Source: Escherichia coli (lineage in GTDB: Bacteria; Pseudomonadota; Gammaproteobacteria; Enterobacterales; Enterobacteriaceae). From it: a DNA stretch of 64,000 nucleotides. The DNA lies in NCBI RefSeq assembly GCF_003334315.1, contig NZ_QOWR01000022.1. One strand, 5' to 3'. A program made the position numbers and the translations under genes. Numbering within the stretch: position 1 is the stretch's first letter; each line of letters starts with the position of its first letter. The notes beneath the pieces were generated by a model. That model did not search any database, was not told the origin of the DNA, and saw only the letters and a program-made list of their open reading frames with translations. Of the stretch, positions 44,349 to 45,479 are shown piece after piece.

Positions 44349-45479
44349 TTAGAACTGGTAAACCAGACCCAGAGCTACGATGTTATCAGTGTTGATGCCA
44401 GCGTCACGAGTGAACTGGTTGTCGTCCAGCAGGTTGATTTTGTAGTCAACGTAGGTGGACATGTTTTTGTTGAAGTAGTAGGTAGCACCAACATCAACAT
44501 ATTTCAGGATATCTTCGTCGTCGTAGTTACGACCATTGATGACACCCAGGTTTTTACCTTTAGACTGCAGGTAAGCCAGGGACGGACGCAGACCAAAGTC
44601 GAACTGGTACTGAGCAACAGCTTCGAAGTTCTGTGCTTTGTTCGCCCAACCCAGGGAACCTACGCGAGTTGCGTTGTAGGTCTGGGTGTACTGAGCAGCC
44701 AGGTAGATGTTGTTAGCGTCGTATTTCAGACCACCAGTGTAGGTTTCAGCACGGTCGCCAGTACCGATGTAGTTACGAACTACACCATTGCTGGTGTAGC
44801 TACCATTTTGATCATCAGTACGTTTGGAGCTGGAAACTGCAGCACCGATACCGAAGCCTTCGTAATCATAAGTGATAGATCCGCCGACACCGTCGCCATT
44901 CTGACGCAGAACACCACGACCATTGTTGGTCATGCCTTCGCCGCTTACGCTACCGTTTTTGCCCTGGTACTGAACAGCAAAGTTCAGACCGTCAACCAGA
45001 CCGAAGAAGTCGGTGTTACGGTAGGTCGCGAAGCCGTTACCACGCTGCTGCATGAAGTTGTCAGAACCGTAGGTGTCGCCACCGAATTCTGGCAGTACGT
45101 CGGTCCAGGAAGTTACATCGTAAACAACGCCGTAGTTACGACCGTAGTCGAAAGAACCTACATCCTGGAATTTCAGACCTGCGAATGCCACACGGGTCCA
45201 GGAGTTTTCTTTGTTGTCTTCAGAGGTATTGCCCTGGATCTGATATTCCCACTGGCCGTAACCGGTCAGCTGGTCAGTAACCTGAGTTTCGCCTTTGAAA
45301 CCAAGACGTACATAGGTCTGGTCGCCGTCTTCTGACTTGTTGTCAGAGAAATAGTGCAGGCCGTCTACTTTACCGTACAGATCTAATTTGTTGCCGTCTT
45401 TGTTGTAAACTTCAGCAGCGTTTGCTGCGCCTGCTACCAGCAGAGCTGGGACCAGGAGGGACAGTACTTTAACTTTCAT
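44349..45479 (-). CDS. ompC: Outer membrane porin OmpC (376-aa allele)
   Basis: Signal peptide [21 protein letters not shown], porin beta-barrel ending ...ALGLVYQF; 9 aa longer than the K-12 protein as I recall it, with differences in loop regions. Confidence 0.93.

Follow-up and report, generated by a model that had tools for sequence, protein, structure and literature searches.

A 376-residue OmpC porin with a K-12-like pore and published surface loop modules in a K-12-like Escherichia coli chromosome

Introduction

The 64,000-nucleotide stretch of E. coli DNA analysed here (the window) carries, at positions 44349..45479 of the minus strand, an open reading frame of 376 codons followed by a TAA stop. 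Its product resembles the porin OmpC and exceeds the K-12 protein by nine residues. The locus raises the question of where these additional residues reside, how they entered the gene, and whether they alter the pore or only the face that the porin presents to the outside. A first-pass annotation, made from the sequence alone, had placed the differences in the middle of the protein, at positions expected to be exposed loops, and had proposed that the allele may be relevant to phage susceptibility.

Identity and fold of the gene product

The frame given by the ORF listing is intact from the ATG start to the TAA stop, which bears out the 376-residue OmpC of the first-pass annotation, and the raw sequence upstream provides the expected ribosome-binding site context. 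The product scores 752.4 bits against the NCBIfam whole-protein model for porin OmpC (NF007841, cutoff 484), and it falls below the cutoffs of the OmpF (477 versus 583) and PhoE (454 versus 599) models. PDB OmpC chains match the protein with E about 1e-200, Pfam Porin_1 (PF00267) is on record for the exact protein, and RefSeq calls a copy that differs by 1 nt ompC. The locus order alkB-ada-apbE-ompC-micF-rcsD, read from the ORFs, the annotation of matching loci and the Rfam micF match, is that of K-12. A paralogous or prophage porin of the OmpN or NmpC type is ruled out by this synteny together with the NCBIfam scores.

An AlphaFold2 (AF2) model was computed from a 65-sequence alignment that was assembled by a search of 50%-identity representatives. 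The model has a pLDDT of 91.9 and a pTM of 0.88, and it exhibits the strand pattern of a 16-strand barrel. Foldseek superposed it on the OmpC structures 2XE1, 2J1N, 2XE2/3/5 and 9wcb at 1.1-1.3 Å, with target-normalised TM-scores of 0.96-0.98. Family model, fold and synteny agree in identifying the gene as ompC. The signal peptide (codons 1-21; 45417..45479, minus strand) is identical to that of K-12, as is the C-terminal β-signal, which ends in YQF. The mature chains of 2J1N (346 amino acids) and 9wcb start at residue 22 of the query. Judged from its sequence, the protein should be expressed and assemble into trimers as a general-diffusion porin.

Loop differences from K-12 OmpC

The MG1655 ompC gene (b2215) comprises 1104 nt and encodes 367 amino acids, so that the K-12 length given in the first-pass annotation, and the excess of nine residues, were correct. 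In a global alignment, the two proteins agree at 343 residues and differ by 20 substitutions and four indels; the net gain is the sum of changes of +1, -4, +8 and +4. Residues 1-48 and 319-376 are the same as in K-12; the signal peptide (21 amino acids) and the C-terminus are thus canonical, as had been claimed.

The extracellular segments were delineated by DSSP on the AF2 model, which is the source of the L1, L2 and L5 boundaries; the names of L4, L5 and L7 agree with two independent published alignments (PMC5056734, S2 Table; PMC12892980). All coordinates that follow are on the minus strand. L1 (residues 46-55; 45315..45344) has two substitutions relative to K-12, D49S and V50E. L2 (residues 83-92; 45204..45233) has four substitutions and one inserted residue, D88, with its codon at 45216-45218. 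The constriction loop L3 (residues 117-145; 45045..45131) is identical to that of K-12 and keeps G137 (K-12 numbering). L4 (residues 173-196; 44892..44963) is type c6 of the catalogue of Beck et al. with the substitution A190V, and it lacks the four K-12 residues G181-S184, 'GFTS'. L5 (residues 220-242; 44754..44822) is Beck type b7, with an eight-residue insertion, 'YTSNGVVR' (residues 228-235), encoded at 44775-44798. L7 (residues 310-321; 44517..44552) is Beck type e and contains the four-residue insertion 'GVIN' (residues 312-315) at 44535-44546; DSSP shows this loop to be the tip of a long β13-β14 hairpin formed by strands 297-314 and 317-335. L6 (residues 269-280) and L8 (residues 350-366), like L3, are free of any change. 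The confidence of the model drops in L4 and L5, to a pLDDT of about 76-78.

All 17 inserted or deleted positions fall in loops, as do 17 of the 20 substitutions, which are distributed over L1, L2, L4, L5 and L7. With loops accounting for 38.6% of the mature protein, the clustering of the substitutions (binomial P = 2.7e-5) is not due to chance. The remaining three substitutions, M57V, G213A and I215V, are conservative and reside in strands. On the modelled topology, then, the length difference lies wholly in the surface loops L2, L4, L5 and L7; the signal peptide and the transmembrane strands contribute nothing to it.

The expectation that the differing positions are exposed loops was therefore confirmed by the pairwise alignment with K-12 and the mapping onto loops, with the length change outside the signal peptide and the barrel strands. 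The two mid-protein stretches that the first-pass annotation had quoted are both present, but the L2 and L7 insertions went unmentioned, and the first stretch, which does differ from K-12, reflects a four-residue deletion relative to it rather than an insertion. A long b-type L5 was sought among the solved E. coli OmpC structures and none was found; all of them have a short L5.

Regulatory DNA and chromosomal context

The stretch that comprises the ompC 5' UTR, the promoter and the ompC-micF intergenic region (45480..45812) is identical to that of K-12, and a comparison of positions 45389-45888 with MG1655 showed 0 mismatches. The OmpR boxes are therefore likely to be intact. A promoter consensus scan of the ompC-micF region returned 3 sites against 3.6 expected. 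The micF sRNA gene (45813..45906, plus strand) is divergent from ompC and matches Rfam RF00033 over its full length with 114.4 bits (gathering threshold 79); its terminator is at 45878-45900. Since both the intergenic region and micF are as in K-12, regulation through EnvZ/OmpR and MicF is presumably unchanged. On the 3' side of ompC, a GC-rich intrinsic terminator hairpin (44311..44330, minus strand), AAAGGGCCTGCGGGCCCTTT followed by a T run, lies in a region that is identical to K-12.

The window is collinear with MG1655 2,265,874-2,331,199, mostly with 0-3 mismatches per kb; its last about 73 nt have no K-12 alignment. Relative to this background, additional patches that diverge from K-12 by 7-21 mismatches per kb were seen at 33000-36000, 52000-54000 and 58000-64000, the K-12 counterparts of which are napG-napA-napF, rcsC/atoS and atoE-atoB-yfaP-yfaQ-yfaS, respectively. 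The elevated divergence suggests that these are further recombination tracts.

Several other features of the window are of a different nature. The adhesin-like autotransporter gene yejO (20516-23107, minus strand) is an intact frame of 863 amino acids. Its K-12 MG1655 counterpart is interrupted by IS5K and counts as a pseudogene; at the IS5 site, the alignment of the window with K-12 runs through with only a 4-bp overlap (23041-23044). Between eco and mqo, positions 37317-37766 hold a repeat block with a period of about 113 bp, which BLAST aligns to K-12 in a series of staggered matches (89-97% identity), with 18 mismatches per kb. This block looks like an intergenic repeat array of the REP/BIME type. 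A direct repeat pair of about 90 bp (49564-49653 and 49678-49767) occupies the rcsB-rcsC intergenic/3' region, and its members are about 91% identical to each other's K-12 counterparts.

Catalogue status and population frequency

The catalogue of Beck et al. (2016) covers 2,707 E. coli OmpC proteins and distinguishes 33 L4, 30 L5 and 13 L7 sequences (PMC5056734, S2 Table). The L5 of the window is an exact copy of type b7 and the L7 an exact copy of type e. The L4 is c6 with a single change, GALRQN to GVLRQN, and this string is not among the 33 catalogued L4 sequences (PMC5056734). The representative of L5 b7 in the table, ATCC 35150, hints at a link of this loop to O157; as the OmpC of EDL933 (9wcb) has the short a6 L5, no such link is claimed.

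No ompC of 100% identity was found among 5,426 complete E. coli genomes; the best matches, at 99.9%, are 1 nt off. Genes of at least 99% identity are found in 299 of 5431 records, a frequency of about 5.5% among complete E. coli genomes; the 69-nt segment encoding L5 b7 is present at 99% identity or more in 328 of the 5,426 genomes. The exact protein with V190 is UPI000B42C603, which occurs on about 43 contigs of public assemblies and is encoded at this locus in numerous draft assemblies. One of these assemblies, GCA_023096745.1 (comparison locus L007), does not differ from the window in any of the 7,131 bp compared. The parent protein with A190, WP_000865600.1, occurs in E. coli C, HS30-1 and other strains; in a search for CDI testing of this parent allele, WP_000865600 was not found in the text of the supplements of Beck et al. 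The allele is thus already catalogued and public, and it owes its additional length to variable loop modules that were known before.

Origin of the divergent segment

Every difference from K-12 falls inside a divergent intragenic patch spanning codons 48-318 (44526..45338, minus strand). The patch contains 27 synonymous and 20 nonsynonymous codon differences, with pS of 0.20 and pN of 0.05. In contrast, the first 47 and the last 58 codons (1-47 and 319-376) show no nucleotide difference from K-12, and the flanks in the 10 kb around ompC deviate from K-12 by about 0.1%. Synonymous divergence of this magnitude is too high for recent point mutation; it marks a stretch of an old allele that was exchanged through homologous recombination. 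On this sequence evidence, the patch is best described as an intragenic recombination patch whose breakpoints fall within ompC or adjacent to it and can be placed only somewhere within the stretches identical to K-12. Modular loop recombination in OmpC has been described by Beck et al. (PMC5056734), and the ompC region is a recombination hotspot according to Patino-Navarrete et al. (PMC6970295).

Haplotypes were compared among the window and the loci designated L001, L003-L007, L010 and L011. At ompC nt 569 (the A/V190 site; window 44911) and nt 996 (a synonymous T/G; window 44484), all four combinations are seen in public genomes: one in HS30-1, one in E. coli C, one in the window together with L005 and L007, and one in L003/L004/L006. 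In addition, strain 11PC combines the V190 L4 segment with an L5 of the c3 type and an L7 of the c type. Together, the four combinations and the 11PC allele point to intragenic recombination or recurrent mutation. The loci L003, L004 and L006 encode the same OmpC protein as the window, but on the apbE-ada-alkB side (positions about 4194-7131) their apbE/ada flank differs from it by about 1.9%, and their rcsD/micF side is nearly identical to the window. The contrast between the two flanks suggests that a recombination junction lies at the 3' end of ompC or slightly past it.

The differences might instead have arisen in place, by point mutations and small indels under diversifying selection with no recombination involved. 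The concentration of changes in surface loops is what positive selection predicts. Such a process, however, does not account for 27 synonymous differences in the patch when there are none in the gene ends and the flanks differ by about 0.1%, nor for the recurrence of the same loop modules in unrelated alleles and backgrounds, nor for all four gametes at nt 569 and nt 996. An in-place origin is scarcely credible, and the synonymous divergence effectively refutes it. Recombination, the preferred reading, makes this locus a clean textbook example of a sub-gene patch, about 0.8 kb in length, in a chromosome that otherwise follows K-12.

The A190V substitution and pore permeability

The sole difference between the window gene and its best matches in complete genomes is the change from GCT to GTT at window position 44911, which produces A190V. 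Position 190 corresponds to K-12 position 193, two residues before R195 (K-12 numbering), and in the AF2 model the site is part of a short helical turn of L4 (residues 190-192). Other natural L4 types also have Val at this site, for instance a3 ('DVLEQN') and d1 ('DDVFEQN') to d3 (PMC5056734, S2 Table). Among the 713 complete genomes that have this L4 nucleotide context, only one, that of strain 11PC from mink, has V190. The substitution is carried by two synonymous ompC haplotypes with different apbE/ada flanks, and by a third allele, that of 11PC, in which the L5 and L7 modules are of other types. Recombination is the simplest explanation for the occurrence of A190V on several haplotypes. 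A190V is conservative, and there is no evidence for an effect.

The rarity of V190 in its context, together with the lack of a 100% identical ompC among the complete genomes, could be taken to indicate a sequencing or assembly error, in which case the window would really carry WP_000865600.1. This explanation can be given practically no credence, because the exact 376-residue protein is present on 43 contigs of independent assemblies and V190 recurs in two synonymous haplotypes as well as in 11PC. The proximity of the substitution to R195 could also mark the allele as a permeability or antibiotic-resistance variant of OmpC, comparable to the phylogroup-D/ST38-type alleles or to the G137D or R195L mutants that lower β-lactam entry. 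R195 is exposed at the pore vestibule and affects β-lactam permeation, and in carbapenemase-producing E. coli the ompC alleles of low permeability have D137 together with E195, or L195 (PMC6970295). The window OmpC, however, keeps both G137 and R195 along with the entire K-12 L3, and the change from Ala to Val is a conservative one to a residue that occurs there naturally. With G and R at K-12 positions 137 and 195, as in K-12, the allele falls outside the class defined by charge-changing residues at these positions, and a permeability phenotype is very improbable. Somewhat less remote, though still unlikely, are two further readings: that A190V has been selected rather than being neutral, and that the longer L5 masks the docking surface of PP01/gpJ despite the 'GVIN' of L7. 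On the first of these, the V190 L4 module may be spreading by intragenic recombination, or may have arisen repeatedly, under pressure from phages, CDI or β-lactams.

The explanation that we favor, and hold with high confidence, is that the window carries the chromosomal ompC of a K-12-like E. coli (phylogroup A type), with a K-12-like pore and different published loop modules on the surface that were acquired by intragenic recombination. An old allele segment would have been brought by homologous recombination into a K-12-like chromosome, or replaced in the K-12 lineage. The product would be a functional trimeric 16-stranded general-diffusion porin in which the parts that make up the pore, namely the barrel save for the three conservative substitutions, L3, the signal peptide and the C-terminal β-signal, are those of K-12. 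Its surface would combine the c6 L4 bearing A190V, the b7 L5 (8 residues longer) and the type e L7 ('GVIN', 4 residues longer) with the small changes in L1 and L2. Such an arrangement would alter recognition by the ligands that dock onto the loops (phage tail fibres and tips, CdiA toxins and antibodies) and leave permeability and regulation unchanged.

Recognition of the cell surface

The L7 and L4 motifs that distinguish the window OmpC from that of K-12 have known roles in phage adsorption. 'GFTS' is a K-12-specific insertion in loop 4 and 'GVIN' an O157-specific insertion in loop 7; the latter is needed for adsorption by gp38 of phage PP01, and when it was introduced into loop 7 of a K-12 OmpC lacking 'GFTS', plating returned to wild-type efficiency (PMC12892980). 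Loop 7 was described as a rigid antiparallel β-sheet (PMC12892980), and the AF2 model of the window OmpC agrees. Residues 312-316 of the window protein read GVING, which by sequence is the motif of the PP01-permissive O157 type. The relevance to phage susceptibility proposed in the first-pass annotation is, for these motifs (L7 'GVIN' and L4 'GFTS'), established biology. Loop-D of gp38 cross-links to P226 and L227 in the L5 of O157 OmpC (PMC12892980). The longer L5 of the window OmpC, at the place where loop-D meets the O157 L5, could interfere with PP01.

Other ligands of OmpC discriminate among its loops as well. Recognition by CdiA-EC536 is set by L4 and L5 (PMC5056734). The lambda gpJ chimera 1A2 delivers DNA to cells with the EDL933 OmpC but not to those with the MG1655 OmpC, and, of 23 natural OmpC variants, 21 permit delivery by A8, by 1A2 or by both chimeras (PMC11338833). 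The phage or CDI susceptibility conferred by the window allele has probably changed, and any effect of the allele is predicted to be confined to the cell-surface face of the porin.

Loop hypervariability, modular shuffling and the receptor role of OmpC have all been published, and the locus adds no new biology to them. Its value is practical. The OmpC loop type serves as a predictor of which phages, engineered particles based on gpJ or gp38, and CDI toxins will dock, and recording L4 c6 (V190), L5 b7 and L7 e is a useful annotation for the prediction of phage-host and CDI susceptibility.

Comparison with known OmpC proteins

Closest to the window protein is WP_000865600.1, the OmpC that E. coli C and HS30-1 carry, which also has 376 amino acids, shares 375 of 376 residues, and occupies the same locus with the same L1, L2, L5 (b7) and L7 (e). 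It has Ala at residue 190 in L4, where the window has Val (nt 44911). The ompC copy of E. coli C differs from the window at the synonymous nt 996 as well.

K-12 OmpC (NP_416719.1; 2J1N), on which the window model superposes at 1.3 Å, shares the signal peptide, the barrel framework, L3, L6, L8, the C-terminus, the promoter region and micF. In contrast, this 367-residue protein has 'GFTS' in L4, lacks D88, the eight-residue L5 insertion and the 'GVIN' of L7, and differs by 20 substitutions.

The best PDB sequence match (E 1e-216) is the OmpC of O157:H7 EDL933, the receptor of PP01, as seen in complex with the phage gpJ A8 (9wcb). Both this protein and the window OmpC have a short c-type L4 without 'GFTS', and their L7 'GVING' is identical. 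The EDL933 protein, with 367 amino acids, differs in having a short L5 (a6), with 'SPL' at the very site of the eight-residue-longer L5 of the window, a K-12-like L2, and 'EA' in place of the 'GV' of the window L4. Relative to EDL933 OmpC, the nine additional residues of the window protein are thus accounted for by L2 (+1) and L5 (+8).
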